Shown here: positions 7,717 to 57,497 of the stretch, one piece after another
Position numbering within the stretch: position 1 is the stretch's first letter
Layout: each line of letters starts with the position of its first letter
Source of the DNA: Rickettsiales bacterium
GTDB lineage: Bacteria > Pseudomonadota > Alphaproteobacteria > Rickettsiales > UBA998
Length of the DNA stretch: 64,000 nucleotides
Direction: 5' to 3'
Assembly (NCBI GenBank): GCA_046348685.1
Contig: JAXMDT010000006.1
Location: forward strand, 2,395-66,394
Program-made: the position numbers and the translations under genes
The notes under the pieces: generated by a model
What the model saw: only the letters and a program-made list of their open reading frames with translations
The model's database searches: none
Told to the model about the DNA's origin: nothing

Positions 7717-7727
7717 TAGTATAAGAA

Positions 7728-20865: not shown

Positions 20866-21188
20866 TTATTATCCTTTGAACGGAACCGGCGTTTCATTTG
20901 CGGGCCGAAGGTGCCGTCCGGCCAGATGGCAAAGACATCCTTTTCACGGCCAACAAGTTCGGAGCCGCTTCCATTTGCCGTTAGCAGCGTCATCTTCGCC
21001 TCGGGAAAAGCGCTAAGATAATAAGTTTGACCTGCAGGAATATCGACAATTGTAGTGTGGTTTCCGGACATGCGTACCGACACCTGATGCGGGACATTCG
21101 CTAAGTTGACAATGCTTAAGGCATGAGCTTCCTGTTGAAAGATAAAGAAAAGCGAAGCAAAAGTGAAAAGCTGTAACAAAAGCTTCAT
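20862..21188 (-). CDS. hypothetical small secreted protein
   Basis: The signal peptide is MKLLLQLFTFASLFFIFQQEAHA. The ORF is 108 aa. Confidence 0.5.
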   Translation of the reverse strand: MKLLLQLFTFASLFFIFQQEAHALSIVNLANVPHQVSVRMSGNHTTIVDIPAGQTYYLSAFPEAKMTLLTANGSGSELVGREKDVFAIWPDGTFGPQMKRRFRSKDNN

Positions 21189-25611: not shown

Positions 25612-27255
25612 ATGATGCAACTATACCTTTCACAGATAAATCCTATTGTGGGCGACCTCAAGGGAAACCATGAAAAACTTTGCTCTGCGTGGAAAAAAGC
25701 AAAGGAAATGGGCGCTGATCTCATTGTTTTTCCGGAGCTTGCCATTACAGGTTATCCACCCGAAGACCTGGTGCTAATGCCATCTTTCCAGCAGGCGGCG
25801 ATGCAGGCAGTCGAAAAGCTGGCCAACGAAACGGTGGATGGCCCTGCCATCATTACCGGCGGAATCTGGCACGACGGCACACAGCTTTATAATTCCGCGT
25901 TTCTGATTGAAGAAGGGAATATCGCCCGCATCCAGTTCAAGCATCATCTGCCGAATTATGGCGTATTTGACGAAAAACGCGTCTTTGCCTGCGGCCCGCT
26001 GCCGGAGGTTGTCGAATGGAGAGGAATCAGAATCGGCCTGCTCGTCTGCGAAGACATGTGGGGCGATGAATCGGTTGCGCACGTGGCGAAACAAAATCCG
26101 GATGTGCTGATTTCCATTAATGCTTCCCCCTATGAACGCGGTAAAATGAGCGCGCGAGAAGAGGTGGCGCGCGATGCGGTATCCACCTGCCGTGCGCCGC
26201 TGTTTTATGTGAATACGGTCGGCGGGCAGGATGAAATCGTCTTTGACGGCCGTTCATTTGTGATGGATGCATCCGGTGAGGTATGCGGCAAGTTCAAGGC
26301 ATTCGAAGAGCAGGTTTCGGGTTTCGGGTTTCAGGTTTCGGGAAAAGAAATTGAATTACTCTCCCCTGACAGCTGGAACCTGGAACCTAAAGCGTTAGAG
26401 CTGCTCTACCTCGCCATGATGACCGGCGTGCGGGATTACGTGGAAAAAAATAATTTTCCCGGCGTGGTGATCGGGCTGTCGGGGGGAATCGATTCGGCAT
26501 TGACGGCGTGTGTGGCGGTGGATGCGCTCGGGCCGGAGCGGGTGCATTGCGTAATGATGCCCTCGAAGTATACCTCCGATATCAGTGTCGTCGATGCGAC
26601 TAAACTTGCCACCGAACTTGGCGTGACCTACAACATCGTCACCATCGCGCAAGGCATGGAAGCGGTGGAGGGTATGCTGGCCGGTATACGCGATCAGCTG
26701 ACCTCGCTGGCGATGGAAAATATCCAGCCGCGGATTCGCGGATTGCTGTTGATGGCGATCAGCAATTCCACCGGTAAAATCCTGCTGACGACCGGTAATA
26801 AATCCGAAATGGCGACCGGTTATGCCACGCTTTACGGGGATATGTGCGGTGCATTCAATGTATTGAAAGACCTTTATAAAATGGAAGTCTATGCGCTCTC
26901 CGAATGGCGCAATATGTCGATGCCGCAAGGTGCGAAAGGGCCGGAAGGTGCGGTGATTCCAGAGAGGATTATATCCCGCCCGCCCAGCGCCGAACTGAAG
27001 CCGGACCAAACTGATCAGGATACACTGCCGCCCTATGCGACACTCGATGCGATCCTGAAAGGGCTGGTGGAGGAACGCTTGTCTGTAGAGGATCTGACCG
27101 CGCGCGGATTTGAAAAAACGATGATCGAACAGGTGGCTGGCATGCTGTTTCGCTCGGAATATAAACGCCGGCAAGCCCCGCCGGGGGTCAAACTCTCCTC
27201 GATGAGCTTTGGCCGCGATCGGAGATACCCGCTGACCAACGGGTTTAAACTCTAA
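25612..27255 (+). CDS. nadE: glutamine-dependent NAD+ synthetase
   Basis: An N-terminal CN-hydrolase domain (FPELAITGYPPEDL...LVCEDMW) is followed by a C-terminal synthetase domain (GLSGGIDSAL). The two are separated by a 26-codon repeat insertion. Confidence 0.95.
   Translation: MMQLYLSQINPIVGDLKGNHEKLCSAWKKAKEMGADLIVFPELAITGYPPEDLVLMPSFQQAAMQAVEKLANETVDGPAIITGGIWHDGTQLYNSAFLIEEGNIARIQFKHHLPNYGVFDEKRVFACGPLPEVVEWRGIRIGLLVCEDMWGDESVAHVAKQNPDVLISINASPYERGKMSAREEVARDAVSTCRAPLFYVNTVGGQDEIVFDGRSFVMDASGEVCGKFKAFEEQVSGFGFQVSGKEIELLSPDSWNLEPKALELLYLAMMTGVRDYVEKNNFPGVVIGLSGGIDSALTACVAVDALGPERVHCVMMPSKYTSDISVVDATKLATELGVTYNIVTIAQGMEAVEGMLAGIRDQLTSLAMENIQPRIRGLLLMAISNSTGKILLTTGNKSEMATGYATLYGDMCGAFNVLKDLYKMEVYALSEWRNMSMPQGAKGPEGAVIPERIISRPPSAELKPDQTDQDTLPPYATLDAILKGLVEERLSVEDLTARGFEKTMIEQVAGMLFRSEYKRRQAPPGVKLSSMSFGRDRRYPLTNGFKL
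26311..26388. repeat. family B hairpin element inserted in frame in nadE
   Basis: The sequence caggtttcgggtttcgggtttcaggtttcggg...agctggaacctggaacct is 78 bp (26 codons) and encodes QVSGFGFQVSGKEIELLSPDSWNLEP. Confidence 0.8.
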
Positions 27256-28849: not shown

Positions 28850-29137
28850 ATGCAGCAGTCATATGTTTATATCATGGCTAGCAAGCGAAATGGGACGCTT
28901 TATATCGGCGTTACATCCAATCTTACTCAGCGAGTCTATCAGCATAAAGAAGGTTTGGCTGATGGCTTCACCAAAAAGTATAATATCAAACTGCTGGTTT
29001 ATTATGAAATTCACGAAGAAATAGAGCAAGCTATCCTCCGGGAGACACAGATGAAGGCATGGCAGCGAAAATGGAAGCTGGAATTGATAGAAAAGTTCAA
29101 TCCGGACTGGAAAGATTTATATGAAACCATTATTTAG
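28850..29137 (+). CDS. GIY-YIG nuclease family protein (UPF0213/COG2827-like)
   Basis: YVYIMASKRNGTLYIGVTSNLTQRVYQHKEG...KLLVYYE...A..RE.Q.K.W.R.WK is present. The ORF is 95 aa. Confidence 0.9.
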   Translation: MQQSYVYIMASKRNGTLYIGVTSNLTQRVYQHKEGLADGFTKKYNIKLLVYYEIHEEIEQAILRETQMKAWQRKWKLELIEKFNPDWKDLYETII

Positions 29138-29227: not shown

Positions 29228-30802
29228 ATGACCATCTCCCTCTATAACACGCTCACCCGCCAGAAAGACGCCCTTGTTCCTGAGAATGAGAAGAATGTCC
29301 GCATGTATGTGTGCGGGCCGACGGTGTATGACCGGGCGCATCTGGGTAATGCGCGCTCGGTGGTGGTGTATGATGTGCTCTACCGGCTGCTGCGGCATGT
29401 GTACGGCGAAAAGCAGGTTACCTATGTGCGCAACATCACCGATGTCGATGACAAGATCAACAAGGCCGCCGTTGAGCGCGGCATCACGATTCAACAGCTG
29501 ACGCAGGAAGTCACCGGCTGGTTCCATGCCGATATGGAAGCGCTGAATTGCTTAGAGTTGCCGGAAAAAAATCAGCCGCGTGCAACACAGTATATTAAAC
29601 AAATGATCAAGATGATCGAAAGCCTGATTGCGAATGGCAATGCTTACGTGGCCGAAGGGCATGTTTTGTTTGATGTAAACACCTCCCCCAGTAGGGGGGA
29701 GGATGGGAGGGGGGCGTTGGATGCTCAGAGTTCCCAAAGCCCCCACCCTAACCTTTCCCCTACTGGGGTGGGAAATTGGTATTATGGCATGCTTTCGGGA
29801 CGTTCGCTGGATGATCTGATTGCCGGGGCGCGGGTGGAAGTTGCGCCGTACAAGAAAAGTCCCGGTGATTTTGTGCTGTGGAAACCCGCAGCGGCGACCG
29901 ACGATGCATCGAGCAAATTTGAATCCCCCTGGGGAGTAGGGCGTCCCGGCTGGCATATCGAATGCTCGGCGATGGCGACGGAACTTCTCGGCGATACTTT
30001 CGATATACATGGCGGCGGCGCGGATTTGATGTTCCCGCACCATGAGAACGAAATCGCGCAGGCCTGCGCCGCCAATCCCGGATCACGCTTCGCGAAGATG
30101 TGGGTGCATAACGGATTCCTCACCGTGCATGGCGAGAAGATGAGCAAATCGCTCGGCAATTTCATCACCGTGCGCGATTTGCTGGATAAGGGCGTGCATG
30201 GCGAAGTGATCCGCTTCGCGCTGCTCTCAACGCATTACCGCAAACCGCTCGACTGGACGGACAAGCTGGTTGAAGAAGCTTTTTTTGATCTCAAGTATTT
30301 TGCTCAATATCTATGGCAGAATCAGGGTTTTAAATTTGATAAATTTGAAAAAGAATGGAAAACATTTTCACGCGAACCTGAAGCACAAATTTATCTTTCA
30401 AGATTTTACGAGAGCTTAGAAAGCGATCTCAACTTTAGTGTTGCAAAAACTGTTATTTACGATGTTATTGATGAAATTAAAAAACATGTTTTTAATTTAG
30501 AAGATAAAGAAGACAATCAAGAAAATGAAAAAAACTATTTCATTTATCGTTCAACATTACGGGAAATGTGTGAATTTCTGGGATTATGTACTGTCAACTT
30601 TGTTGAGTGGCAAAAGCAGGAAGAAGCCAACAAAAATAGCGGTAGCGATGTAGAAGCGATTCAAAATCGCATCGGAGCGCGGAAAGCAGCTAAGCTTGCC
30701 AAGAACTGGGCGGAGGCAGACCGCATACGCGATGAACTAAAAGCCGAGGGCATCCTGCTCGAAGACAAGCCGGGTGATGTGACGGAGTGGAGAAGGCTTT
30801 AA
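29228..30802 (+). CDS. cysS: cysteine--tRNA ligase
   Basis: [18 protein letters not shown] contains the HIGH motif and KMSKSLGN is present. At 524 aa it is longer than usual because of a ~30-codon repeat insertion. It contains a strongly AT-rich internal segment. Confidence 0.95.
29682..29775. repeat. family A ('GEG-type') MITE-like element in frame in cysS
   Basis: cctcccccagtaggggggaggatgggagggggg...cccccaccctaacctttcccctactggggtgggaaa encodes [31 protein letters not shown], between FDV and YGMLSG. Confidence 0.75.
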
Positions 30803-31698
30803 TGGCTAGCCTTCTTGAATACTTCTACAATGATTTTTGGCGATATAGAGCGTATGGATCAAATTGGCCTTTAGCCCTCTTTTTAGGTGAAAAATATCCT
30901 TCACCTAGTTTATCAGGGTCAAGCTTTTTAGGGTTACCAGAATTACAAGAGCACAGCTTTTTATATGCTCATAGATACGACGAAGCTACCCGAAGCTTTC
31001 CATTAATTTTCTATATTCCAGCAATTGAAGAACATGAGATTCTAATTATAAGAATATTAGAAAACCTACATTACTTCTTAGATCATGGACTTCTAAAAAC
31101 AGGCCCTATATTCAATGAAAAAATACTAAATGAAGAGTTGGATTTTAGCGGAACAATATATTTTTATTCAGAAAATATTATCGGCGTTGAAACGCAAAAG
31201 AAACTGGAAGAATATGCGGGTTTACGAATTATAATTAGAGAAAAACTTTACGCTGAAGAAAAATCTAAAGTTGAAAAACCAGTTGCATTTATTTCCTATG
31301 ATAATCGCGATAAAGAAGTTGCTGAGCAGATAGTCTTTGGACTCCAAAAAATGAATTTTCCTGCACCAATATGGTTTGATCAATATTCCCTTAAGTGGGG
31401 CAATAATATGAGAAAGACTATTGAAGATGGCTTAAAAAGATCAAAAAAATGCATAGTTGTTCTATCTCAAAATTATATGGAAAACAGAAGCTGGGCTGCA
31501 GAAGAATTTGAAAGCGCCTACCAAAAAGGTTTGCACGAAAAAGAAGATATTTTTCTTCCGATATGGAAAGGCGTTACAGAAAAAGAAGTTTATGAATTTT
31601 CACCTAAGCTTAAAAATGTAAAAGGCATTATTTGGAGCGAAGATAATAAAGATAAAAATATGCGTAACGTATTCGATGTTCTAAAAGAGTTACTATGA
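30802..31698 (+). CDS. TIR-domain protein with an uncharacterised ~165-aa N-terminal domain
   Basis: The C-terminal TIR pattern is VAFISYDNRDKEVAE...IWFDQYSLKWG...KKCIVVLSQNYMENRSWAAEEFE...IFLPIW. The gene is strongly AT-rich. Its start overlaps the cysS stop (TAATG); a GTG at 30787 is an alternative start. Its stop overlaps the next start (ATGA). Confidence 0.8.
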   Translation: MASLLEYFYNDFWRYRAYGSNWPLALFLGEKYPSPSLSGSSFLGLPELQEHSFLYAHRYDEATRSFPLIFYIPAIEEHEILIIRILENLHYFLDHGLLKTGPIFNEKILNEELDFSGTIYFYSENIIGVETQKKLEEYAGLRIIIREKLYAEEKSKVEKPVAFISYDNRDKEVAEQIVFGLQKMNFPAPIWFDQYSLKWGNNMRKTIEDGLKRSKKCIVVLSQNYMENRSWAAEEFESAYQKGLHEKEDIFLPIWKGVTEKEVYEFSPKLKNVKGIIWSEDNKDKNMRNVFDVLKELL

Positions 31699-34162: not shown

Positions 34163-34178
34163 TGTCATAAAAGCTTCA
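34163..34178 (+). promoter_or_regulatory. conserved upstream motif copy 1 (TGTCATAAAAGCTTCA)
   Basis: It lies 46 nt upstream of ATG 34225. A TAAAAT -10-like hexamer follows 24 nt downstream. Confidence 0.55.
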
Positions 34179-34224
34179 TTGGTAGTGGTAAGAAGTGTCG
34201 CGTAAAATAAGCATAGGAAATTCT

Positions 34225-34998
34225 ATGCTTTTTTTGATTCCACTTGCTGCTGAAGGAATCGCCGCCTTGTTTGGCGGCGGCGCGGCTGCGGCTGCCGGTA
34301 CGGCGGCGGTCGTGGGAACGGAAGCGGCCATCGGAACGGCAGCTGCCGTTGGCACCGCTGCCGTGGCAACCGAAGCGGCCGCTGTAGCAGCAGGTACGAC
34401 GGCTGCCGTCGGCGGCACGGCGGCAAGCGCCGGATTGCTGGCAAGCGTGGGGCTTTGGGGTAGCCGCTTGATTGCGCCGGCACGGTGGGCATTTAGTGCC
34501 TTGCGTTCGGGCGGATTAGTCCGCGGTGGAAAGATTGGATTGGAAGCAGCTGAAAAAGTTGCAACGAGCGGTGGCGCGCGAACCGCACTGACAAAAGTCG
34601 GATTAGCAGGCGGTGGCGCGGCGCTCGGCGCGACGGGCGCTACAGCGACATGGGCGGCATCGACTGCGATTACTCTGTCAATTTTTGCGGGGATCGCCCT
34701 TGCCGTTGCCATTGGCGGATTTGCGCTTTACCGCGCGTTTGCCAGCCCAAGTGACGTCTCGGAAAGCACAATGCGTGAAAAACCGCGGGATATTCCCCAG
34801 CCGGCGATGCAGGTGCCGCAGCAGCAGGTCATGATGCAGCCGCAGCAACAGCAACCCGTCATAATGATGCAGGCGCCGCAGCCGCAAGGCTACTGGGTGC
34901 AGCGCGTCGCCACACCGCAGATACAGCAGCAATCCTTCGCCGCTGCCGAAGACCAACGCCGCCAGCAGGCAGCCTTAGCGCAGAACGTTGTCCAATAA
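34225..34998 (+). CDS. Gly/Ala/Thr-rich membrane protein with a Q/P/M-rich C-terminal tail
   Basis: I prefer ATG 34225 (RBS AGGAAA) over GTG 34195. A low-complexity GTAAAVG-type region and TM helices are followed by the tail PQQQVMMQPQQQQPVIMMQAPQPQGYWVQ. Confidence 0.55.
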   Translation: MLFLIPLAAEGIAALFGGGAAAAAGTAAVVGTEAAIGTAAAVGTAAVATEAAAVAAGTTAAVGGTAASAGLLASVGLWGSRLIAPARWAFSALRSGGLVRGGKIGLEAAEKVATSGGARTALTKVGLAGGGAALGATGATATWAASTAITLSIFAGIALAVAIGGFALYRAFASPSDVSESTMREKPRDIPQPAMQVPQQQVMMQPQQQQPVIMMQAPQPQGYWVQRVATPQIQQQSFAAAEDQRRQQAALAQNVVQ

Positions 34999-35073
34999 GG
35001 TTTCAGCTTTCAGGTTTCAGGTTTTAGTATATTTATAAACCATGCTGACACCTGAAACCCGGCACCTGAATCC
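34999..35073. repeat. family B hairpin element spanning the methyltransferase start codon
   Basis: The sequence is ggtttcagctttcaggtttcaggtttt-agtatatttataaaccATGctgaca-cctgaaacccggcacctgaatcc. Confidence 0.75.
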
Positions 35074-35776
35074 CCCCACCGTCATTCTCGATCGCCCGCA
35101 GATGGGCGAAAACATCGGCGCGGTGGCGCGCGCGATGATGAATTTCGGCATGCGCGAATTGCGGCTGGTGAACCCGCGCGACGGCTGGCCGAATCCGAAG
35201 GCGCATGAGATGAGCGCCAATGCCGATGTGATCATCGAGGCGGCACGCGTATACGATACGTTTTCCTCGGCGCTTGCCGATTGCCATTTCGTGATTGCGG
35301 CGACCGCCCGAAAACGCGAATTGGAAATTCCGACTTACACGCCGCGCGAATCGGCTTCTCTGCTGCTCGAAAAAATGCGCGATGGCGAAAAGGTAGGCAT
35401 CGTGCTCGGCGGCGAGCGGGCGGGACTTGCCAATGAAGATATCGTTCACTGCCAGGCGATCTGCACGATCCCTACCGACCCTGCCAATGCCTCGCTGAAT
35501 ATCGCACAGAGCATGGTGATTTTAGGCTATGAATGGTGGATGGCCACTCTGCAGGACGCAGAGCATAGCGGCCCGGAGATGGCCCATGCCACCAACGGCG
35601 AGCGGCAGGCGCTCTACGAGCACCTCGTCTGGGCGCTCGATAATAGCCAGTATTTCCAACACGAGGGCAGGGCGCTCGTCATGCAGCGCAACCTTCGTTC
35701 CATGCTGGCGCGGCTTCCTCTAACATCCCAGCAAATACAGTCGCTTAGGGGCATGATTCGGGCGCTGATGTCTTAA
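35042..35776 (+). CDS. TrmH/SpoU-family RNA methyltransferase (TrmJ/LasT-like, group 1)
   Basis: VILDRPQMGENIGAVARAMMNFGMRELRLVNPR...VLGGERAGLANED...IPTDPANASLNIAQSM is present. The first ~10 codons (MLTPETRHLNP) come from the repeat. Confidence 0.8.
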   Translation: MLTPETRHLNPPTVILDRPQMGENIGAVARAMMNFGMRELRLVNPRDGWPNPKAHEMSANADVIIEAARVYDTFSSALADCHFVIAATARKRELEIPTYTPRESASLLLEKMRDGEKVGIVLGGERAGLANEDIVHCQAICTIPTDPANASLNIAQSMVILGYEWWMATLQDAEHSGPEMAHATNGERQALYEHLVWALDNSQYFQHEGRALVMQRNLRSMLARLPLTSQQIQSLRGMIRALMS

Positions 35777-35790
35777 TATTTTTACGTATT

Positions 35791-35806
35791 TGTCATCGAA
35801 GCTTCA
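35791..35806 (+). promoter_or_regulatory. conserved upstream motif copy 2 (TGTCATCGAAGCTTCA)
   Basis: It lies 53 nt upstream of ATG 35860. TATAAT at 35830-35835 follows 23 nt downstream. Confidence 0.6.
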
Positions 35807-35859
35807 TACATAATCGGCGGGAAGCGGCGTATAATACTCATATAAAATAGGATCATCGC

Positions 35860-36222
35860 ATGAGCATTTTAGGAACCGCCTGGAATACTGTTACCGCCCC
35901 AATCAGGGGTATTTTTTCCGGTCTGGCGACCTGGAGCGATGTATCGACGGCGACTCTTGTCCCACTTATGGTCGTTGGCGGTGCCGTTGGGCTTTTTTTT
36001 GGTCCGGGAGCGGCGCTTGTCGGCGTTGCAGGAGGCGCGCTTGCCGCTGCGGGGTTAGGAATGGTAGCGGGTGCGGGAGACGCGGCGATTTCAACGACGA
36101 CCAATGTGGCCAGCGCTGTTTTTGGCGGCAGCAGTGAACAGACAGCCAGCGCCGGTGAAGAACAGGCTGTGGAATCCGGCCTGCCGGCAAAAGGCAAAGA
36201 ATCAGGCGGGAGAACGGTTTAA
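35860..36222 (+). CDS. small glycine-zipper membrane protein
   Basis: The 120-aa ORF contains VVGGAVGLFFGPGAALVGVAGGALAAAGLGMVAGAG (GxxxG-rich) and an acidic/Ser-rich tail. Confidence 0.55.
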   Translation: MSILGTAWNTVTAPIRGIFSGLATWSDVSTATLVPLMVVGGAVGLFFGPGAALVGVAGGALAAAGLGMVAGAGDAAISTTTNVASAVFGGSSEQTASAGEEQAVESGLPAKGKESGGRTV

Positions 36223-36235
36223 CAAGAAATTAAAT

Positions 36236-36251
36236 GTCACAGAAGCTTAAC
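36236..36251 (+). promoter_or_regulatory. conserved upstream motif copy 3 (TGTCACAGAAGCTTAA)
   Basis: It lies 54 nt upstream of ATG 36306. TATAGT at 36275-36280 follows 23 nt downstream. Confidence 0.6.
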
Positions 36252-36305
36252 ACACAGGACAAAGCAAATCCCCTATAGTTAGGGTGTAATAATAGAGAAA
36301 AACTT

Positions 36306-36809
36306 ATGGCAAACTATCGTGACTCTTATGAACCATCCGGCGCCCGCGTTGCTGCAACAGCAGCAAGCGAAACGGCACGCGGTGTTGGAATTGGGCTAGC
36401 ACTGACTGGCGCGTTGCTGATTGGCACGCCGATTGTTGCTTTCTGGGCAGGCGCTCCCATCATCGGTGCAATCGCAACGGCTGTGGCGATTGGCGCAGCA
36501 ATATTCGCGCCCGTGGTTTTTGGTATCGCAGGCGTTGCTGGTGCTATCTCAGGATTCAAAAAAGGCACGGAGAAAATCGATAACGATTATGCCCGTGCAC
36601 ATGAAATTCAAAAAGCCCAATCCGTACTGACATCTCAGGAGCGTGAAATGGGCCGTGCGGAAGCTTACGCTGAAATGAATCAGCCTCGCTCCGCTTTCAT
36701 GGCACAGGCTCCGGTCTATGTTTCGACGGGTGAATGCCCACATTGCAAGGTAAACAGCATGAATTACCAGGGTCAAGCCGTTGCCCTGCAACATGGAATT
36801 GCGAGCTAG
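36306..36809 (+). CDS. glycine-zipper membrane protein with a C-terminal CPHC and YQGQ motif
   Basis: The 167-aa ORF has TM/Gly-Ala region GVGIGLALTGALLIG...GAIATAVAIGAAIFAPVVFGIAGVAGAISG. The tail reads ...FMAQAPVYVSTGECPHCKVNSMNYQGQAVALQHG. Confidence 0.55.
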   Translation: MANYRDSYEPSGARVAATAASETARGVGIGLALTGALLIGTPIVAFWAGAPIIGAIATAVAIGAAIFAPVVFGIAGVAGAISGFKKGTEKIDNDYARAHEIQKAQSVLTSQEREMGRAEAYAEMNQPRSAFMAQAPVYVSTGECPHCKVNSMNYQGQAVALQHGIAS

Positions 36810-36818
36810 GAGTAAGTT

Positions 36819-38282
36819 ATGGCACGTTGGTGGAATAAGACGAAAAAGGCTGTAGGAAACGCTACGATTGGCGAGCAGGCACGTTATAACCGGCTAAACG
36901 CTGCTGTGGGCGCAACAGAAGACGAGCTGAGCAGACTTGAGACTGGGACCGGGGGTACAAGGGGTCTCCTCGACCTCGAGCATGAGCATGAGGAAGCTGT
37001 TGCTAAACATGCTGAAGCGGCAGCCGCGCATGCAGAAGCAAAAGACGCATTTACCCCAATTGATATTCAGCAGAAAAAACTACAAGCGGAAGTTACAGGT
37101 GCGAAAACGCGCCTTGAGGCACTTCAAAAAGCTCATGAAGCTGCAGAAAAGGCCCATGCCGATCATCAAGCGAAAATTAGCGATATTGAAAGCCGTGTCG
37201 GTTCGGCTTCGGTTGAAGACCTTGCGCAAGCTAGGCAAGATGCCGAAATTGCCCGTGCTCAGGCACGTCACCCACTTAAAAAACTCGAGACTACGTTGCC
37301 TGGTGGAAGTACAGGTAATATTGATGAGTACTTTAAAAATGAACGGGAGAGATATAAAGAAGCCAAGCGTAAAATTAAATCCGCTTTAGGCACGCCTCGT
37401 GAAGAGACTGCAATAAAAGAGTTTAATGAAGCAAGAGCAAATCTTGTTGAAGCCCGAAAGATTCGACGTGGTACTGAAGAATACAGGGTATGGAGCGCAG
37501 CTAACAACGAGTACCTTGCAGCAGAAGCACTGCATGAGGAAGCAAAAGCCCTTGGCGGACTCCGAGCGAAATCAGATGGATTGAAAAAAGCAGCTGATCA
37601 AGCAGAAGCAAAACTCACAGGGAGTCCTGATCATGTGAAGCTTAAGGAAGCAGAAGCGGCATTGGAGACTCACACAACGGAAGTACATACACCTGCTGCA
37701 AACAGGTTGGCATTAGCAAAAGAGGCAGTTGAAGGCGGATCCGTTACAGGCACTCGCGAAGCAATGAAAAACGCTGAGCATGCACTTAAATCGACAACCC
37801 GCCGCCAGGAATTACTGGAAGGCCGACTTGAGCGCCAAACAAAACGCTTGGAGCAGGTCGGCGAAAAATGGCGGATCGGCAAGTCTGGTAAGATTGTGAC
37901 GGGTCCAATGAAATTTGCTGGAAAAACGTTGAAATGGGGTGGTCTTGGTGTGTTGGCAGCCGGCGCTGGCGCTTTGGCTTACAATGCGCTAAAGCCTTCA
38001 AATCGCGGTTCTGATGAGGCGCTGCAAGGTCTGAAAGACCAGATCGCCGAAAATGAAGCGAAGCTGACGGCGATTCAGACGATGCAGCCGCAGCAGCCGG
38101 TGATGCAGCAGCCGATCATGGTTGCCGCGACGCCGCAAGGCCCGGTCGCAACGCAATATCCGCCCGTAATGATGGTTCCGGCGAACAGCAATGTTCCAGC
38201 AACCTCGATTACCAGCGCCGGCCTGCAGTACCAGGGTCAGCTGATAGCGAATCAAGGCCAGATGATGGGAGCGCCTGCGTAG
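36819..38282 (+). CDS. coiled-coil protein with a C-terminal TM anchor and Q/P/M-rich tail
   Basis: This 487-aa ORF starts 9 nt after the previous stop. Long heptad-like Ala/Glu/Lys helices are followed by TM WGGLGVLAAGAGALAYNAL. The tail is MQPQQPVMQQPIMVAATPQG...LQYQGQLIANQGQ. Confidence 0.6.
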   Translation: MARWWNKTKKAVGNATIGEQARYNRLNAAVGATEDELSRLETGTGGTRGLLDLEHEHEEAVAKHAEAAAAHAEAKDAFTPIDIQQKKLQAEVTGAKTRLEALQKAHEAAEKAHADHQAKISDIESRVGSASVEDLAQARQDAEIARAQARHPLKKLETTLPGGSTGNIDEYFKNERERYKEAKRKIKSALGTPREETAIKEFNEARANLVEARKIRRGTEEYRVWSAANNEYLAAEALHEEAKALGGLRAKSDGLKKAADQAEAKLTGSPDHVKLKEAEAALETHTTEVHTPAANRLALAKEAVEGGSVTGTREAMKNAEHALKSTTRRQELLEGRLERQTKRLEQVGEKWRIGKSGKIVTGPMKFAGKTLKWGGLGVLAAGAGALAYNALKPSNRGSDEALQGLKDQIAENEAKLTAIQTMQPQQPVMQQPIMVAATPQGPVATQYPPVMMVPANSNVPATSITSAGLQYQGQLIANQGQMMGAPA

Positions 38283-38292
38283 GCTTCATCCC

Positions 38293-38347
38293 CAGCTTTC
38301 AGGTTTCAGGTTAATCGGGTTCAGCATGCTGAACCCGATTTTCTTTT
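38293..38347 (+). terminator. repeat-derived rho-independent terminator
   Basis: A family B half-arm cagctttcaggtttcaggtt is followed by the hairpin aatcgggttcagc/gctgaacccgatt and TTCTTTT. Confidence 0.7.
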
Positions 38348-38402
38348 AGCGACAGGGCGTTGCAATAACACGTAACCCGTTGCGGGAAACCTACCTTAGT
38401 GT

Positions 38403-38430
38403 TTGACAAACGCGAAAATCCGGCTATATT
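38403..38430 (+). promoter_or_regulatory. sigma-70-like promoter of rpsD
   Basis: TTGACA (38403-38408), a 16-nt spacer and TATATT (38425-38430) lie ~35 nt upstream of the GTG start. Confidence 0.6.
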
Positions 38431-38463
38431 CCCCATTCTTTCAAAGAGATATGAGGCAAAACA

Positions 38464-39081
38464 GTGTCTAAACGTCTGGATTCAAAATATAAAATCAGCC
38501 GCCGCCTGGGTGAAAATCTGTGGGGCAGAGCGAAAGATCCCGTGCTGAAACGCGATTACGGCCCAGGCCAGCATGGTCCGGCTCGCCGCCGCAAACTGTC
38601 GGACTACGGTCTGCAGCTGCGTGCGAAGCAAAAACTGCGCGGCTACTATGGCAGCATCAATGAGCGCCAGTTCCGTAAGATTTATCAGGAAGCCGTGCGC
38701 CGCAAAGGTGATACGTCGGAAAACCTGGTTGGCATTTTAGAAAGCCGCCTCGATGCATTCGTATTCCGTATGGGCGTCGTGCCGACTGTATTCGCGGCGC
38801 GTCAGTTCATTAACCACGGCCATATCACGCTGAACGGCAAGAAAGCCAACATCAGCTCCATCCAGCTGAAAGAAGGCGATGTCGTGCAGGTGAAAGAAAA
38901 ATCCCGTCAGATGAACATGGTTCTGGAAGCGATGAAAAACGCCGAGCGTACCGTGCCGGATTATATCGAGATGGATAACGATAACCTGAAGGGTAAATTT
39001 ATCCGCGTTCCGAAATTCATGGAAATCCCATATCCGGTGAAAATGGAACCGAACCTCGTCATCGAATTTTACTCTCGCTAA
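38464..39081 (+). CDS. rpsD: 30S ribosomal protein S4
   Basis: The start is [23 protein letters not shown]...[11 protein letters not shown]...[10 protein letters not shown] contains the S4 domain. Confidence 0.95.
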
Positions 39082-39103
39082 GCGGGACTATCTGAATTTT
39101 AAA

Positions 39104-39130
39104 GGGAGCTTCGGCTCCCTTTTTTATTTT
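39104..39130 (+). terminator. rho-independent terminator of rpsD
   Basis: The stem gggagc-ttcg-gctccc is followed by TTTTTTATTTT. Confidence 0.8.
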
Positions 39131-39149
39131 AAAGACCTATATTACTTCC

Positions 39150-39668
39150 ATGGCTTCAAATGACGATACCACCGATGCACGCTTTCTGAGCGAGGCGGAA
39201 TCCGACCAGTTCAAAACCTTTGAACAGGAGATCGCCAAGCTTGCCGAGCGGGCTGCGGCGGGTGCGGAAAACATCGATATGGAACTGGCCAACCTGCTGG
39301 TTGGCGTGCCTGATTCCGTGCGCAATGAAGCGGTGGCCCAGTTTCGCGCGCTGGTCAAAGAGATGCAGCAGGAAAAGGGCCAAAGCGCCGTTCTCTCGCC
39401 GGAGCAGGAAAAACAGATGACGCTGCTCAAAGAACAGGAGCGCCAATTTCTTGCGCACTGGCTTTCAGATAAAACGCTAAAGAAGCTGCGTGAGGCGATT
39501 CTTTCCAACCCGCTATTTATGTCGCAGGTGATGAATATCGGCGATGAGCTTTACAAACGCGGCGTGTTTGTGACGCTGGATAAAGATATGCCGCAAACTG
39601 GCCAGCAGGTCACCGCGCAGCCGGTGATTGCCCCGGGCCACGAGCGTGGCGAGGGCCGGAAGCGCTGA
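39150..39668 (+). CDS. hypothetical protein
   Basis: This 172-aa helical, E/Q/K-rich ORF belongs to no family I recognise. Its 3' end overlaps the convergent ORF 39610-41166 by 59 nt, so one of the two ends may be mis-set. Confidence 0.45.
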   Translation: MASNDDTTDARFLSEAESDQFKTFEQEIAKLAERAAAGAENIDMELANLLVGVPDSVRNEAVAQFRALVKEMQQEKGQSAVLSPEQEKQMTLLKEQERQFLAHWLSDKTLKKLREAILSNPLFMSQVMNIGDELYKRGVFVTLDKDMPQTGQQVTAQPVIAPGHERGEGRKR

Positions 39669-41166
39669 TATGTTCTTCACCTGATTTAAGCCGTGCTAAC
39701 AATTCATCAAATGGCTTACTGTTTTTCGCTGCCTCATAAAGTGCATGCTCATCTACCGTACCATGAGCAAACAATTCCTGCTCAATTGCCTGGATAATTG
39801 GTCTGTTCATTGCGTCGGCATTTTCTCCTACGTAAAAACCGATCTGCAAAAGCGCATTACGCGCTTGAGCTGCCCTTTCCGCTATCACATGGTGTTTTGC
39901 GATTGCATCTTCCAGTGCTTCCTGAAGTGGTTGCCAAGCAGCTTCATATGCTGTGGCAAATCCTTTTATATAGTGTGTTGCTAAGGCATGGTCATACAGA
40001 TGATTTTGAATAAGGCTCTGCTGAATCTGAAAATCATTTTTGCCTTCATAATGTTTTCTAAAAATAGCTAGAGAGTCTGCATCGATAAAAACAGGCAGGC
40101 GGTGTGGATCGACAGCGGTATCAAACTGAATTGTCAATGGCTTGTTGGGGTGCTTTTCATGGTCAGCGAGTAAAACAGCGGCATTGCTAACACTAAAATT
40201 GGGATTCGGTTTACCTGGAATGGCTTCCTGAAGTTCAAACGTCAGCGGGCTTACCACAACTGTGCTGGGCTCTGCGTAGCCGCCTAGGATATCTGCGGAA
40301 ATAATATCAACATTCTTTTGAGATAAATAACTCAGGACGTTTTCCAAATTTGCGTGGGAGCGTGGGTTACTGTCGAAACGTGCGCCAATCAATCTAACTT
40401 GTAGTTTTCGATCGCCAAACCGCTTGAAGAAGCTATCGAGGCTTTGCGTATCCGATTCGTAATTTAAATGTACGATACCTGTTTTCTTAGTAGCCGGATC
40501 GCGTGCGATAATAGTGACGCATTCCCCGATATTGTCCGTGCCAATACAGGTTTTATTAGAAAAACCGGCTTCGCCTTCTTCAACGCGCTTTGCGGTAACA
40601 TCTGTATTGCCTCCAGATTGCATATGCCGAGACATGCGCAAAGCTTGCTCCTGGACACCGGCCAATCTTTCTTGATAGCGTCTCGCGGTAGAGGGGGCGC
40701 TTCCAGCATAATGGGAGATCGTCTTGCCTAAAGCACTGTAGAGATAATCGATATCACGAAAGGCATGGTCTGTGCGTCCTAAATTTTCATGAATATCGAC
40801 TGCCTTTTGTAATAGCGGAATGCCATATTCTGCAGCAGGTTTTCCGTCTACATCGCCCTCTATGTTCAAGCATGACTGCCCTGCCATGGAATATGTATTA
40901 CCTTGTTCAACATATTTTCCCTCGTGCCCATATGCATCTCCGGCTAGCTTATGTGACAGAATGCTTTCAGGTATATTTCCAGAGTTGAATGCATCATAAC
41001 CTTTTTGCTCCGCAGCACCTGCGGTAGAGTTTATATTTAAAACATATTGCAGGTTGGATTGCACGCGAGTGCGCGTGTTGAAACCGGATGGAAGCTTCAT
41101 CAAGCGATCAATGAGATCGTTGAAAGCCGTAGATGTAATGGGTTCACCTTGGATAGAAAATGACAT
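39610..41166 (-). CDS. hypothetical 518-aa protein with a CheD/CNF1-like Thr-Cys-His motif (candidate deamidase or effector)
   Basis: The central segment CIGTDNIGECVTIIARDPATKKTGIVHLNYESD has Thr at -6 and His at +17 relative to the Cys. G+C is lower than in the flanks. There is no signal peptide and no chemotaxis context. Confidence 0.5.
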   Translation of the reverse strand: MSFSIQGEPITSTAFNDLIDRLMKLPSGFNTRTRVQSNLQYVLNINSTAGAAEQKGYDAFNSGNIPESILSHKLAGDAYGHEGKYVEQGNTYSMAGQSCLNIEGDVDGKPAAEYGIPLLQKAVDIHENLGRTDHAFRDIDYLYSALGKTISHYAGSAPSTARRYQERLAGVQEQALRMSRHMQSGGNTDVTAKRVEEGEAGFSNKTCIGTDNIGECVTIIARDPATKKTGIVHLNYESDTQSLDSFFKRFGDRKLQVRLIGARFDSNPRSHANLENVLSYLSQKNVDIISADILGGYAEPSTVVVSPLTFELQEAIPGKPNPNFSVSNAAVLLADHEKHPNKPLTIQFDTAVDPHRLPVFIDADSLAIFRKHYEGKNDFQIQQSLIQNHLYDHALATHYIKGFATAYEAAWQPLQEALEDAIAKHHVIAERAAQARNALLQIGFYVGENADAMNRPIIQAIEQELFAHGTVDEHALYEAAKNSKPFDELLARLKSGEEHISASGPRHARGPGQSPAAR

Positions 41167-41223
41167 ATCTAAATTCTTATTATTGGACGACGGATCGTCA
41201 TATTCAGATATATCAATAGTTTG

Positions 41224-41239
41224 TTACGCTTTTATGGCA
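41224..41239 (-). promoter_or_regulatory. conserved upstream motif copy 4 (TGCCATAAAAGCGTAA on the minus strand)
   Basis: It lies 57 nt upstream of ATG 41166. It matches the copies at 34163, 35791 and 36236 at 13-14 of 16 positions. Confidence 0.5.
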
Positions 41240-49607: not shown

Positions 49608-50957
49608 TTAAGTGGTTTTGAATCTAATTTCGACGCCAAGCCCGGGCTGTTTATCTCTGAAAGACATTTCTGCATTGTGAAGCTTTAAAATCGCATCGAC
49701 GACGCTGAGACCAATGCCGGTGCCCGGTGTGGTTCGGCTTTCCTCGAGCCGGAAAAAGCGCTCTTTTACTTTGTTATGATAGGCATTCGGAATGCCCGGG
49801 CCGCGATCTTCAATAGTGAGAATGATCGTATCATTATCCGCCACGGCTTTGAGCATGACACTCCCCTTAGCGGGCGAAAATTTGATGGCGTTGTCGAGCA
49901 GGTTGGCAATTGCCTGGGTAAGCAGCTGGCGATCGCCAGTGATATGCAATCCGGGTGACACATGCGAGGTGATGGCAACCTGCTTTTCTTCCGCCAGCGG
50001 CAAATAAAAATCGAGCACATCATCCAGTATATCGGAAAGCGCGATATCGGAAAAATGATCCGCTTCCACGCGCGACTCCGCACGCGAGATGACAAGCAGC
50101 GCATCGCACAGATCGCGCAGGCGGTCGATTTCGGCAATGGCTTCGGATAGCGGCTGGCGCATATTATCCGGAGTGGCCGGCAGTGCCAGCATATGTTCGA
50201 GGCGCAGGCGATGGCGATTAAGTGGTGTGCGAAGATCATGCGCCATATTGTCCGAGGTGGCGCGCACGTTATCGATCAGTTCATTGATGCGGCCGAGCAT
50301 ACGGTTGAAGTTTTCACCCAGCTGATCGAATTCGTCATGGCTGCCGGTGACCGGCACGCGTGCGGAAAGATCGCCCTCCATGAGGATGCGGCATGTATGA
50401 TTTACCTGGCGCAGCTTGCGCGTGATGAAAAGCGTAATCAGCGTGCTGCAGAAAATAGCGGCGGCGAGGGAAAGCAGGAAGTCGGTAAACAGGCGGCTGA
50501 TAACGATCTGCTCAATCTTCCGTACATGTTTTAAGCTGTATCCAATGATAAACTGGCCGCCTTCGGAATAGCGATGGTATCGGATAAGATATTCATCGCC
50601 CCCCATATGGAGCCTATAATATTTTTCACGCTTTTCCGGCATATGCGGAATATAATCCAGATTGCCTTCCAGCTTGCGCCCATGCGGGTCAAAATAGGCG
50701 ATGATGAATAAATTTTCTTCATCATTATCCAGCAATGCACTGATAAGGTTTAGCGCGCGCGGCGTGAGATTGTGGCCAAGGGCGGAATCGACTTCGCTAT
50801 ATTCCTGCTCGACAATTCCCCGCACCTCACGCAGCGCTTCCTGTACGGTGCCATAATAAATCAAAGTGCGCAGCACCAGCAGCACCACGAAAAATGCCAG
50901 AAAGCACAGCATTGTCAGCCTGAAGCTATAAGACTTGAGTACGGGCTTATGCCACAT
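49608..50957 (-). CDS. sensor histidine kinase (two TM segments, HAMP, HisKA, HATPase_c)
   Basis: I moved the start to ATG 50957 (MWHKPVLKS..). The H-box is MAHDLRTPLNR and the G-boxes are DRGPGIP and GTGIGLS. It overlaps the regulator stop. Confidence 0.85.
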   Translation of the reverse strand: MWHKPVLKSYSFRLTMLCFLAFFVVLLVLRTLIYYGTVQEALREVRGIVEQEYSEVDSALGHNLTPRALNLISALLDNDEENLFIIAYFDPHGRKLEGNLDYIPHMPEKREKYYRLHMGGDEYLIRYHRYSEGGQFIIGYSLKHVRKIEQIVISRLFTDFLLSLAAAIFCSTLITLFITRKLRQVNHTCRILMEGDLSARVPVTGSHDEFDQLGENFNRMLGRINELIDNVRATSDNMAHDLRTPLNRHRLRLEHMLALPATPDNMRQPLSEAIAEIDRLRDLCDALLVISRAESRVEADHFSDIALSDILDDVLDFYLPLAEEKQVAITSHVSPGLHITGDRQLLTQAIANLLDNAIKFSPAKGSVMLKAVADNDTIILTIEDRGPGIPNAYHNKVKERFFRLEESRTTPGTGIGLSVVDAILKLHNAEMSFRDKQPGLGVEIRFKTT

Positions 50958-51621
50958 CGAGCTTGTATCCCACCCCGCGTAGCGTATGGATGAGGGGCTT
51001 TTCAAAACCTTTGTCGATTTTCTGACGCAACCGGCTGATCTGCGCATCGATCAGGTTGGTCTGCGGATTGAAGTGGAAATCCCATACGCCTTCGAGCAGC
51101 ATCGTGCGCGTGATGACCTGTCCGGGGCGACGCATCATGTATTCAAGGAGGCGGAATTCACGGTTGAGGAGCGCAATCTCCTTTCCCGAGCGCATGACTT
51201 TCCGGTGCAGCAGATTAAGCTCGAGGTCGGAAAATTTAAGCACTGTCTGCTCGGTGGGCGACGCGGTGCGGCGTACCAAGGCTTCGACACGGGCCAGCAG
51301 TTCGGCAAAGGAAAACGGTTTGGTGAGATAATCGTCGCCGCCGGAGCGCAGTCCTTTGATGCGTTCTTCAACCTGATTCAGCGCGCTCAGCACCAGGGCA
51401 GGGGTGTGGTTGCTTGACTGGCGGAGCGTCTGTATCATGGCGAGGCCGTCGATCTTCGGCAACATGCGGTCAACGACAAGTGCATCGTATATGCCCTCCG
51501 TTGCCATATAGAGGCCTTCCATGCCATCTTTCGCCCAGTCAGCATTATGGCCCGCTTCTTTCAGGCCATCGGTTATGTACTGGCCGGTAACCTCATCATC
51601 CTCTACGATCAATATGTGCAT
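50947..51621 (-). CDS. OmpR-family response regulator
   Basis: The receiver reads MHILIVEDDE...DALVVDRMLPKIDG...LTKPF. The winged-helix region reads ..RGVGYKL. Confidence 0.9.
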   Translation of the reverse strand: MHILIVEDDEVTGQYITDGLKEAGHNADWAKDGMEGLYMATEGIYDALVVDRMLPKIDGLAMIQTLRQSSNHTPALVLSALNQVEERIKGLRSGGDDYLTKPFSFAELLARVEALVRRTASPTEQTVLKFSDLELNLLHRKVMRSGKEIALLNREFRLLEYMMRRPGQVITRTMLLEGVWDFHFNPQTNLIDAQISRLRQKIDKGFEKPLIHTLRGVGYKLDVA

Positions 51622-52112: not shown

Positions 52113-52249
52113 AGTGAATCTCCTATTTGTGTATGTGGTTATTCGCCACGAGCCGGATCATGGCACAGCCCTTCTTTCGTGACTGTGACAGGGACGTGAA
52201 ATCGACGTAATGTTTGACGCAGGGATTCTTTGCCCTCATAAACGGGACC

Positions 52250-55081: not shown

Positions 55082-55175
55082 GTTATTTACTTTTTTGCAC
55101 GCTTTAAAAATTCGCTGATTGCGCTTGCGCTGACCTAAAAAAAGCCTAGGCTCTCCCTGCAATAAAAAGGAGTAG

Positions 55176-57497
<2,322 letters not shown>

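Follow-up and report, generated by a model that had tools for sequence, protein, structure and literature searches.

The window, i.e. the whole 64-kb stretch of DNA that was analysed, contains four plus-strand genes, here named A to D, which encode uncharacterised membrane proteins. Gene A (34225-34998) encodes an Ala/Gly-rich protein of 257 aa with one C-proximal membrane helix and a Gln/Pro-rich tail containing the residues WVQRV. No Pfam or NCBIfam family was found for it. We assigned its start to the ATG at 34225 rather than to the GTG at 34195, because the latter lies upstream of the predicted transcription start. Gene B (35860-36222) codes for a small glycine-zipper membrane protein of 120 aa belonging to no known family. 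In the product of gene C (36306-36809, 167 aa), a Gly-rich membrane segment precedes a polar stretch that is conserved, and a YQGQ motif is located at the C-terminus. Its family is narrow, with only 5 representatives in 1.84 billion proteins. The product of gene D (36819-38282, 487 aa) combines a long coiled coil with a membrane helix near the C-terminus (AYNALKP) and a tail rich in Gln; its orthologs comprise 158-184 aa in the seven distant loci, those of the loci L011 and L012 466-469 aa. Gene D begins 9 nt past gene C, and therefore both are probably co-transcribed. The C-D transcript ends at an intrinsic-terminator-like hairpin with a T-run (38313-38340, plus strand; 12-pair stem with 6 G-C pairs). 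A paralogous relationship among these membrane proteins, as suggested in a preliminary description of this DNA, was not borne out, since profile-profile comparison of the ortholog sets yielded nothing significant (probabilities of 36% over 12 columns and of 0.4%).

In front of these genes lie copies of a 16-nt motif, for which the preliminary description had derived a consensus. A consensus search detected four exact matches as the only ones in the window. Testing this consensus against an expectation of zero is circular, because it was derived from the same four copies. The copies were therefore scored with a weight matrix trained on 24 sites from other genomes only, the window sites being left out. 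Box 1 (TGTCATAAAAGCTTCA, 34163-34178, plus strand) in the promoter of gene A reached 26.8 bits, box 2 (TGTCATCGAAGCTTCA, 35791-35806, plus strand) in the promoter of gene B 28.6 bits and box 3 (TGTCACAGAAGCTTAA, 36235-36250, plus strand) in the promoter of the C-D operon 27.7 bits. These values fall inside the range of the training sites (21-31.5 bits). The fourth copy (TGCCATAAAAGCGTAA, 41224-41239, minus strand) scored 12.3 bits. With both strands counted, about 0.005 matches of at least 21 bits would be expected per 64 kb, and the best chance score (shuffle maximum) averages 13.0 bits per 64 kb. Thus, boxes 1-3 are far beyond chance and the fourth copy is at chance level. The positions given earlier were correct except for box 3, which had been placed one nucleotide too far downstream (36236-36251). 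Likewise, the distances to the start codons of 46, 53 and 57 nt for the other copies were reproduced, and that of box 3 is 55 nt instead of 54 nt.

The consensus of the box is the 17-bp sequence TGTCAY-NNAAN-CTTCAY. It comprises two directly oriented TCAY half-sites at a distance of 11 bp, or one helical turn, and an A-rich spacer between them; T3, C4, A5, A9, A10, T14 and A16 are near-invariant in the other-genome matrix. The half-sites are consistently unequal (TGTCAY vs. CTTCAY). The second half reads CTTCA in 22 of the 27 sites of the clade and is one of the one-base variants TTTCA, CGTCA or CTTAA in the rest, and TGTCA did not occur there in any of the 27. The box lacks dyad symmetry. The boxes of the window's lineage contain the palindrome AAGCTT, but position 11 is free across the clade and the palindrome is not kept. 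One site of a related locus, L001 348(-), exhibits three half-sites at 11-bp spacing.

As described previously, -10-like hexamers follow the first three copies at 23-24 nt: TAAAAT (34203-34208) 24 nt after box 1, TATAAT (35830-35835) 23 nt after box 2 and TATAGT (36274-36279) 23 nt after box 3, all on the plus strand. A hexamer of the type TAnnnT is present 22-24 nt past the box in all 27 conserved sites, compared to 3.2% of random positions, and in most sites it lies 16-40 nt in front of the start codon. An extended -10 (TG at -15/-14) was detected in 11 of the 27 sites, with about 6% expected. A good -35 element was not found in these 27 sites; the best match averages 3 of 6 positions and never reaches 5 of 6. 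The DNA between box and -10 hexamer is not conserved between loci. The box occupies about -51 to -36, adjoining the upstream side of the degenerate -35, where these positions depend on transcription starts deduced from the -10 hexamer alone. The earlier interpretation as a promoter element at the position of an activator site is supported. Fixed orientation, fixed distance to the -10 hexamer and the missing -35 together indicate activation specific for one face of the helix, and not repression.

The gene order cysS-cimA-A-trmJ-B-C-D-rpsD-g39150-grx-bolA-purL is kept in seven MAG loci, the TrmJ proteins of which are only 44-53% identical to that of the window. The three syntenic positions of the box (behind cimA, behind trmJ and about 500 nt beyond) are occupied by it in nine other loci as well, namely these seven and two closer relatives, all from uncultured genomes read as fragments only. 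A counterpart of box 1 follows cimA in L001, L002, L003, L005, L007 and L009, and a counterpart of box 2 follows trmJ in each of the nine syntenic loci, the close relatives L011 and L012 among them. The TTAA variant of box 3 and its TATAGT hexamer recur unchanged in L011, L012 and L013. The box is under purifying selection at three syntenic promoters in a deep clade of distantly related uncultured alphaproteobacteria. In related genomes more boxes with the same geometry precede the genes of other orphan membrane proteins. Of 75 exact matches to box plus hexamer from metagenomes, 10 lay in a strict promoter context compared to 1.8% of random positions (p about 1e-6), and small Gly-zipper or orphan proteins are encoded downstream of most matches in promoter context. 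Directly downstream of one metagenome match (L134) lies an operon of an OmpR-family regulator and a kinase. The cross-genome conservation strengthens the previous suggestion of a small co-regulated set of uncharacterised membrane-protein genes linked by the motif.

A pair of TCAY half-sites with an 11-bp period and an A-rich spacer represents the anatomy of an activator site of the OmpR/PhoB family; direct-repeat sites are typical of this family, but not exclusive to it. It is therefore rather likely that genes A, B and C-D are driven by three sigma-70-type promoters with one common activator site, bound by an OmpR/PhoB-family response regulator. What we infer is the family of the binding protein, activation as the direction of control, the signal and which regulator is involved. 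A dimer of the phosphorylated regulator would bind head-to-tail on one face of the helix and, through sigma region 4 or the C-terminal domain of alpha, recruit RNA polymerase to promoters that would be weak by themselves. Thereby, the four Gly/Ala-rich membrane proteins would be induced together upon a signal sensed by the partner kinase, which would probably be envelope or osmotic stress. The unequal half-sites do not agree with the prediction of a simple tandem homodimer and count against this explanation. The only candidate regulator in the window is an OmpR/PhoB-family response regulator (50947-51621, minus strand), which lies 10 kb away and forms a pair with a kinase (49608-51047). This pair may perhaps regulate the box, to which we assign a rather low probability. 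The best NCBIfam match of the regulator is CusR/CopR-like, with 247.8 bits under a cut-off of 279.2 bits. An assignment as PhoB (179 vs. 296 bits cut-off) or CtrA (165 vs. 350 bits cut-off) was rejected. The matrix scan detected no box of the conserved type upstream of this regulator.

According to the preliminary description, all four copies are functional sites of one regulon that includes a putative CheD-like gene behind the fourth copy. This copy does have the right orientation and lies in an intergenic region of 85 nt, and metagenome boxes are often located upstream of orphan, effector-like genes. However, chance would give about 1.1 matches at its level per 64 kb, the otherwise invariant positions T3, T13 and C15 are mismatched in it, and a TAnnnT hexamer 22-24 nt past it is absent, the nearest hexamer being TATGAC at 21 nt. 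The downstream gene (39610-41166, minus strand; 518 aa, low G+C of 0.45) is an orphan and a lineage-specific insertion, the product of which matched only itself among 5.8 billion proteins; its CheD-like character is weakly indicated, by sub-threshold matches. Neither this gene, missing between g39150 and grx in the other loci, nor a counterpart of the site was found in any of the relatives. We consider a four-copy regulon unlikely, and the copy at 41224-41239 is excluded from the element. The preliminary description also proposed a -35 element of an alternative sigma factor; a further possibility of this kind would be a -24/-12 promoter resembling those of sigma-54. TGTCAY-N5-CTTCA and the sigma-54 consensus TGGCAC-N5-TTGCW do have the same 16-nt span and the letters TG-CAY...T-CA in common, but the invariant GG and GC read GT and TC in every site, and the conserved TAnnnT with its TG would be without a role. 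A -35/-10 pair of the sigma-70 family needs 16-19 nt, for which the 22-24 nt observed are too long. Recognition by an alternative sigma factor is very improbable. The box could further be the operator or activator site of a protein outside the OmpR/PhoB family, such as a factor acting as monomer or heterodimer, or a repressor blocking upstream polymerase contacts. The non-equivalent halves, the AAGCTT of the window's lineage and the fact that the box is linked to no regulator so far would agree with this. The lack of conservation of the palindrome across the clade and the lack of dyad symmetry argue against it, as does the activation signature against a repressor, so that we regard it as unlikely.

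Finally, the box might be the clade's version of the Pho box, bound by PhoB, with genes A-D belonging to a phosphate-starvation regulon. The classical Pho box CTGTCATAAAACTGTCAT follows the pattern CTGTCAT-N4-CTGTCAY in E. coli. It shares with the clade box the TGTCAY first half, the 4-bp A-rich spacer, the 11-bp period and promoters without -35; first half and spacer can even be identical (TGTCAT AAAA), and the E. coli pstS Pho box has 14 of 17 positions in common with box 1. Four metagenome matches to the box pattern (L027, L074, L092, L120) lie upstream of phnG, and in S. meliloti a Pho box, ATGTCACAAGCCTGTCAT, is predicted at phnG (PMC3616915, Table S14), so a CTTCAT second half is possible in PhoB sites. 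For Pho boxes and the candidate FeuP boxes of S. meliloti, the distance from the end of the box to the transcription start amounts to 22-25 nt (PMC3616915); the clade box is located about 12 bp further upstream than both, a point that speaks against our preferred explanation, too. Pho boxes take the place of the -35, leaving about 10 nt to the -10, from which the clade box is about 12-13 bp more distant. Moreover, the second half lacks TGTCA throughout the clade, and there are no known phosphate-acquisition genes among the downstream genes. A Pho box is thus quite unlikely.

The preferred reading, an activator site of the OmpR/PhoB family, has parallels in other systems. In Legionella and Coxiella, PmrA elements are tandem-repeat boxes of an OmpR-family regulator upstream of Dot/Icm effector genes, and at a fixed distance to the -10 they mark a set of otherwise unrelated orphan genes, the members of which can therefore be traced by the box. 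They differ from the clade box in a TTAAT-type half-site, in replacing the -35 and in their gammaproteobacterial hosts. No evidence of a secretion system or of effectors was obtained here. Another parallel is Motif 3 of S. meliloti, TTCA-N7-TTCA, the proposed site of the OmpR-family regulator FeuP, whose binding is only predicted (Schlueter et al. 2013, PMC3616915, text and Table S17). Both boxes are alphaproteobacterial, have the half-site core and the 11-bp period in common ((G/T)TCA-N7-TTCA, then Y or K), are co-directional with transcription and precede small hypothetical envelope proteins, membrane-bound or secreted (PMC3616915). However, the 16-mers of Motif 3 mostly end 23-25 nt (some 45-47 nt) before the mapped start and thereby overlap the -35, whereas the clade box ends about 36 nt before the predicted start. 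In addition, the first half is TTCAT instead of TGTCAY, and the sites of Motif 3 do not exhibit the A9 A10 spacer. The CenR box of Rhodobacter sphaeroides, TGA-N8-TGA, is conserved across alphaproteobacteria, the motif being low in information and cenR and cenK being unlinked (Lakey et al. 2022, PMC9275681). On the coding strand the clade box reads TCA-N8-TCA and matches it on the opposite strand only. Like the clade box, the CenR box is directly repeated with a period of 11 bp and immediately precedes the -35, and it activates genes with envelope-bound products (PMC9275681).

The degenerate 16-mer defined in the preliminary description has exactly four matches within the 64-kb window: at 34163-34178, 35791-35806 and 36235-36250 on the plus strand and at 41224-41239 on the minus strand, with start codons following 46, 53, 55 and 57 nt on, respectively. 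These positions are identical with those originally given, apart from the third copy, which had been placed one base too far downstream (36236-36251). The three plus-strand copies are followed by a putative -10 hexamer, TAAAAT at 24 nt in the first case and TATAAT and TATAGT, both at 23 nt, in the other two. A shuffle test using the 16-mer yielded zero matches; this test is circular, because the consensus was fitted to these same four copies. Real and false sites among them (three versus one) could be separated only by matrices trained on other genomes. The weight matrix used here was built from 24 sites outside the window (consensus T-G-T-C-A-Y-N-N-A-A-N-C-T-T-C-A-Y, near-invariant at T3, C4, A5, A9, A10, T14 and A16). 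With this matrix the three plus-strand copies reach 26.8, 28.6 and 27.7 bits, and the training sites themselves score 21.1-31.5 bits. In a shuffled 64-kb window the best match averages 13.0 bits (95th percentile 17.6), and 0.005 matches of at least 21 bits are expected per window. Matrix scores and conservation across genomes thus confirm three of the four copies, referred to here as boxes 1, 2 and 3.

The minus-strand copy at 41224-41239, proposed as a fourth site of the regulon, could not be upheld. It scores 12.3 bits, a value for which about 1.1 matches are expected per window, is mismatched at three near-invariant positions of the consensus and has TATGAC, at 21 nt, as its nearest hexamer. 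We count it as a chance match that is quite unlikely to be functional. A site at 21172-21187 (TGTAACAAAAGCTTCA, 21.2 bits) upstream of the gene for an SLT lytic transglycosylase was rejected as a fifth site of the window. It forms the start of a 107-aa minus-strand gene, in which ATGAAGCTTTTGTTACAG encodes MKLLLQ; in close relatives (L014-L016) its variation follows the codons and no TAnnnT hexamer is present, and the site is missing in more distant members of the clade, e.g. upstream of the SLT gene in L017/L018, which belong to the same genome as the syntenic locus L007. Likewise, a site at 31598 (11.4 bits) lies inside a TIR gene and is a chance match, and sites of about 15 bits in the final bolA codons of the closer relatives L011 and L012 reflect coding constraint.

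The boxes are located among housekeeping genes (glyQS, ppdK, etfBA, nadE, gltX, cysS, cimA, trmJ, rpsD, grx, bolA, purLQSC and thiC are present in the window, which has about 53% G+C). An exact-sequence look-up revealed no identical sequences of the window proteins on record in public assemblies, and no close relative turned up when one genome per species was scanned with the TrmJ protein. The scan returned ten loci with a TrmJ identity of 44-53%; the MAGs to which they belong are designated either "Rickettsiales bacterium" or "Alphaproteobacteria bacterium". The order cysS-(gst)-cimA-gap-trmJ-2-kb gap-rpsD-g39150-grx-bolA-purL is kept in seven of the ten, L001-L003, L005 and L007-L009, in which CimA and RpsD are about 74-76% identical. 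In the gaps after cimA and trmJ, the four kinds of genes known from the window recur: gene A (34225-34998), gene B (35860-36222), gene C (36306-36809) and gene D (36819-38282). Closer relatives, L011 and L012/L013 from public sequencing runs, were reached via homologs of gene C with 57-59% identity; they lack gene A and keep B, C and D. In every syntenic locus a box is placed after cimA (where gene A is present), after trmJ and again about 450-650 nt further on. The sequence between box and hexamer is unconserved; the box is therefore under selection of its own and not merely inherited.

Each of the 27 sites has a TAnnnT hexamer whose first base is 22-24 nt past the box (23 nt in 13 sites, 24 nt in 12 and 22 nt in two), and at random positions such a hexamer occurs with a frequency of 3.2%. 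An extended -10 element, TG at -15/-14 when anchored on the hexamer, is found in 11 of them. None of the 27 has a good -35 element; at 16-18-nt spacing the best match to TTGACA averages 3 of 6 bases and never reaches 5. The rpsD promoter of the same region has the canonical arrangement TTGACA-16-TATATT and no box. In most sites the start codon follows 16-40 nt past the hexamer, behind Shine-Dalgarno-like purines. If the hexamer covers -12 to -7, the box would extend from about -51 to about -36 and be centred near -43.5. This geometry, with TAnnnT at 22-24 nt and no good -35, supports the earlier reading as an activator site. Gene D begins 9 nt past gene C and is followed by a strong hairpin-plus-T terminator at 38313-38340, indicating that three promoters serve four genes.

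Within the box, TCAY half-sites occupy positions 3-6 and 14-17 of the 27 sites in direct orientation with an 11-bp period. Three such half-sites in phase are present at L001 348 (minus strand) and a run of four in the metagenome locus L134. The spacer between them is A-rich (A9 and A10 each 94% in the matrix and, before pseudocounts, invariant in the 24 training sites), positions 7-8 are A-biased, and dyad symmetry is absent from the box. Sites to which winged-helix response regulators of the OmpR/PhoB family bind head-to-tail are typically built in this way, from cores in the same orientation with an A-rich stretch between them. Scans of the 64-kb window with Rfam and for tRNAs gave no match, which means that the motif does not belong to any known RNA element. 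At the gathering score no Rfam family was found in the 64 kb, hence also no TPP riboswitch at 54453-55179 upstream of thiC (55179-57497), and no tRNA genes were found in the window.

Genes A to D keep their position beside cimA, trmJ and rpsD across a deep uncultured alphaproteobacterial clade, and none of them belongs to a family in Pfam or NCBIfam. Gene A, located after cimA, encodes an Ala/Gly-rich protein that has a Gln/Pro-rich tail and, close to its C-terminus, a single membrane helix, and gene B, located after trmJ, a small glycine-zipper membrane protein. The product of gene C has a Gly-rich membrane segment followed by a conserved polar stretch; that of gene D, immediately behind C, combines a Gln-rich tail with a single C-proximal membrane helix. 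The assumption that these proteins are paralogs was not substantiated, as profile-profile comparison of A, B, C and D (hhalign) revealed no homology; what they have in common is composition and architecture. At the sensitivity of HMMER, the family of gene C has five representatives among 1.84 billion proteins. Owing to a coiled-coil expansion at its N-terminus (about 300 aa), the gene D product has 466-487 aa in the window as well as in L011 and L012, compared with 158-184 aa in the seven more distant loci. Near the C-terminus of many box-driven proteins we detected the pattern [W/F/H]-x-[Q/D/N/S/E]-R-[V/L], about 3-fold enriched over other ORFs, a post hoc pattern from small numbers. It occurs e.g. 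as WVQRV, WQNRV, HAQRV, WEDRV and FRDRV in gene A, its orthologs and other box-driven genes (L002, L003, L007-L009, L020, L033, L050, L083). A Y/L-Q-G-Q-like motif near the end, also defined post hoc, is common to the products of genes A, C and D.

The 518-aa protein encoded behind the minus-strand copy of the 16-mer, at 39610-41166 (minus strand, 45% G+C), is an orphan with no match other than itself among 5.8 billion proteins, and a sequence search of the PDB revealed no relative. Its label as CheD-like, which would call for a significant match covering the Cys-His catalytic pair of the CheD/NTAN1/XopAK-type deamidases, goes back to sub-threshold matches around the stretch GECVTIIARD...GIVHL (CheD 17.6 bits with a cut-off of 223, PF14736 (NTAN1) 16.8 with a cut-off of 24, XopAK 14.1 with a cut-off of 150) and stays tentative; a single-sequence AlphaFold model has a pLDDT of 45. 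The gene is situated between g39150 and grx, which in all relatives adjoin or flank unrelated short orphans. This slot, as well as the grx-bolA slot in L011/L012, holds different orphans in each lineage and both are therefore regarded as insertion hot spots. The gene g39150 itself (39150-39668, plus strand) encodes a 172-aa protein of unassigned function with faint matches to PDCD5-type dsDNA-binding models (E 0.01-0.05) and is found beside rpsD, at 33-49% identity, in nearly every syntenic locus. Elsewhere, a TIR-domain protein (30787-31698, plus strand; PF13676, E 1.5e-15) is encoded in an island of 38-44% G+C between cysS and a GST-like gene, i.e. in the low-G+C stretch of the window at 30-32 kb, and is possibly a defence gene gained by transfer. 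Tandem heptamer repeats GGTTTCR (e.g. AGCTTTCAGGTTTCAGGTT) gave 8 matches versus 0.02 expected. They include 13572-13597, 14341-14359, 26312-26337, 34998-35023 and 38294-38312, all on the plus strand; two are located directly past the stop codon of gene A and that of gene D, the others at gene boundaries or inside nadE, and they have the appearance of a small family of dispersed repeats. Two similar genes of about 95 codons (28850-29137 and 58478-58762, both plus strand) have products that start alike (...YVYIMASKRNGTLYIGVT... and ...WVYIVTNKPNGILYIGVT...). Judged by eye these look like GIY-YIG-type proteins, and the genes may be dispersed selfish elements.

In about 330 kb of clade sequence, sites of at least 21 bits with the right hexamer were restricted to the three cluster promoters of each genome. 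Other orphan genes are preceded by a few boxes of lower score (17-21 bits) and correct geometry: L001 348 (minus), L139 13814 (minus), L142/L143 19165 (minus) and L139 15584 (plus), the last one upstream of an operon ending in a D-like tail-anchored protein. The related metagenome contig L139 also carries, at 6429-9558 between a DUF179 gene and an SLT gene, five tandem paralogous genes of 186-232 aa without a Pfam family. A metagenome scan for box plus hexamer matched at least 120 stretches, a mixture of real and chance sites in which chance matches within genes prevail. Strict promoter context was found for 10 of the 75 metagenome matches listed, compared to a rate of 1.8% at positions drawn at random from this DNA (p about 1e-6), and the genes behind them encode mostly small glycine-zipper or orphan proteins without a Pfam family. 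As close relatives of the organism studied here were not found among the matches listed, these loci show that the architecture recurs and give no information on the regulon content of this genome.

The sole OmpR-family regulator of the window is encoded at 50947-51621 (minus strand), together with an overlapping kinase (pair at 49608-51621). It is nearest to CusR/CopR-type models, below their cut-off, and is clearly neither PhoB nor CtrA. Looking for autoregulation, we did not find a box of the conserved type upstream of 50947-51621. Upstream of the neighbouring gene for an 86-aa secreted protein, TTTCACGTCCCTGTCAC (52185-52201, minus strand) contains two TCAC cores 11 bp apart, scores below 8 bits and is followed by CATGAT 23 nt later; we treat it as a lead at most. 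The match in L134 immediately precedes an operon for an OmpR-family regulator and a kinase.

Together, the box and genes A to D form a genuine small regulon switch, which is conserved and of a familiar type, in a lineage that is itself unstudied. Going beyond this, the box might mark a stress or envelope regulon that extends across the uncultured alphaproteobacterial clade and has not been described before, in which fast-evolving tail-anchored or glycine-zipper membrane proteins without detectable homology share the box and the C-terminal peptides ([W/F/H]-x-x-R-V, Y/L-Q-G-Q) and are run by an OmpR-family two-component system of their own, whose activation geometry would be unusual in lying so far upstream (-43.5). 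We consider this wider proposal rather doubtful. If it were true, the shared box and peptides would suggest a common partner or targeting step, and the box could enumerate the whole gene set, as PmrA boxes reportedly did in Legionella. In any case the box offers an entry point to dark-matter genes, since A to D can be treated as one co-regulated unit under a 17-bp switch. Its fixed geometry can be used for listing the regulon in complete genomes, for finding the regulator by phylogenetic profiling and for reporters.

Recognition of the motif by an alternative sigma factor, as also suggested in the preliminary description, is not compatible with the distance between box and -10 or with the missing sigma-54 dinucleotides. 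A sigma-54 promoter (TGGCAC-N5-TTGC) is excluded, as its invariant GG at -24 and GC at -12 are replaced by GT and TC in every site, and a conserved -10 sits 23 nt downstream of the box. The box as the -35 element of a sigma-70-family factor is excluded because the distance to the hexamer is 22-24 nt. A repressor operator is unlikely, since the -35 is missing and orientation and phase are strict.

Box 1 shares 14 of 17 positions with CTGTCATAAAACTGTCAT, which we take to be the Pho box of E. coli pstS, and several clade sites read TTCAC-N6-TTCAC, presumably the cre tag pattern of CreB. Among the metagenome matches listed, four pattern matches are located at promoters of phnG, a gene preceded by a Pho box in S. 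meliloti, indicating that PhoB can tolerate a CTTCAT half. The clade box has the first half in common with the 18-bp Pho box (CTGTCAT-N4-CTGTCAY), whereas the second half TGTCA is seen in none of the 27 clade sites (C12 and T13 each 90%). Pho boxes, tabulated for S. meliloti as well, overlap or replace the -35, their end being separated from the -10 by about 10 nt and from the start site by 22-25 nt (PMC3616915); unlike these, the clade box ends 22-24 nt from the -10. Furthermore, the Pho regulon serves phosphate acquisition, whereas genes A to D have no Pfam or NCBIfam family and resemble structural membrane proteins. We therefore regard a PhoB site as very unlikely. The CtrA box (TTAA-N7-TTAAC) was rejected, too: TTAAC occurs only in the second half of box 3 in the lineage of the window, and the first half is GTCA everywhere.

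A literature search by motif sequence words retrieved no matching report. Nothing known is overturned by the switch, which is of an ordinary type, and three described alphaproteobacterial motifs resemble it, one of them being the S. meliloti Pho boxes treated above. Motif 3 of S. meliloti, TTCA-N7-TTCA, is found upstream of 12 genes and was proposed as the FeuP site; its 16-mers, such as TTCATCTGGCGTTCAT, are situated ahead of genes for small proteins, hypothetical ones of the membrane or secreted type (PMC3616915). A comparison with Table S17 of that study (PMC3616915) shows that most clade sites contain (G/T)TCA-N7-TTCA co-directional with the gene, with variants such as TTAA (box 3 of the window, L011/L012), GTCA (L007 10787) and TTTTCA (L005 5438). 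Motif 3 16-mers mostly end 23-25 nt, a few 45-47 nt, before the start (PMC3616915), whereas the end of the clade box is about 36 nt upstream of the inferred start, about one helical turn above Motif 3 and Pho boxes. The CenR box of R. sphaeroides is a direct repeat directly upstream of the -35 and activates envelope genes (PMC9275681). It has the same 11-bp period and the position upstream of the -35 in common with the clade box, but its coding-strand TGA-N8-TGA matches TCA-N8-TCA on the opposite strand only. Direct repeats with a 10-11-bp period, an A/T-rich spacer, at which the wing of such regulators contacts the minor groove, and a fixed orientation and phase to a -35-poor promoter are found in the clade box as in OmpR/PhoB sites. 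Judging from these sequence features, we file it as a putative response-regulator site of the general OmpR/PhoB type, kept outside any named regulon because of its differences in position, second half and strand from the known motifs.
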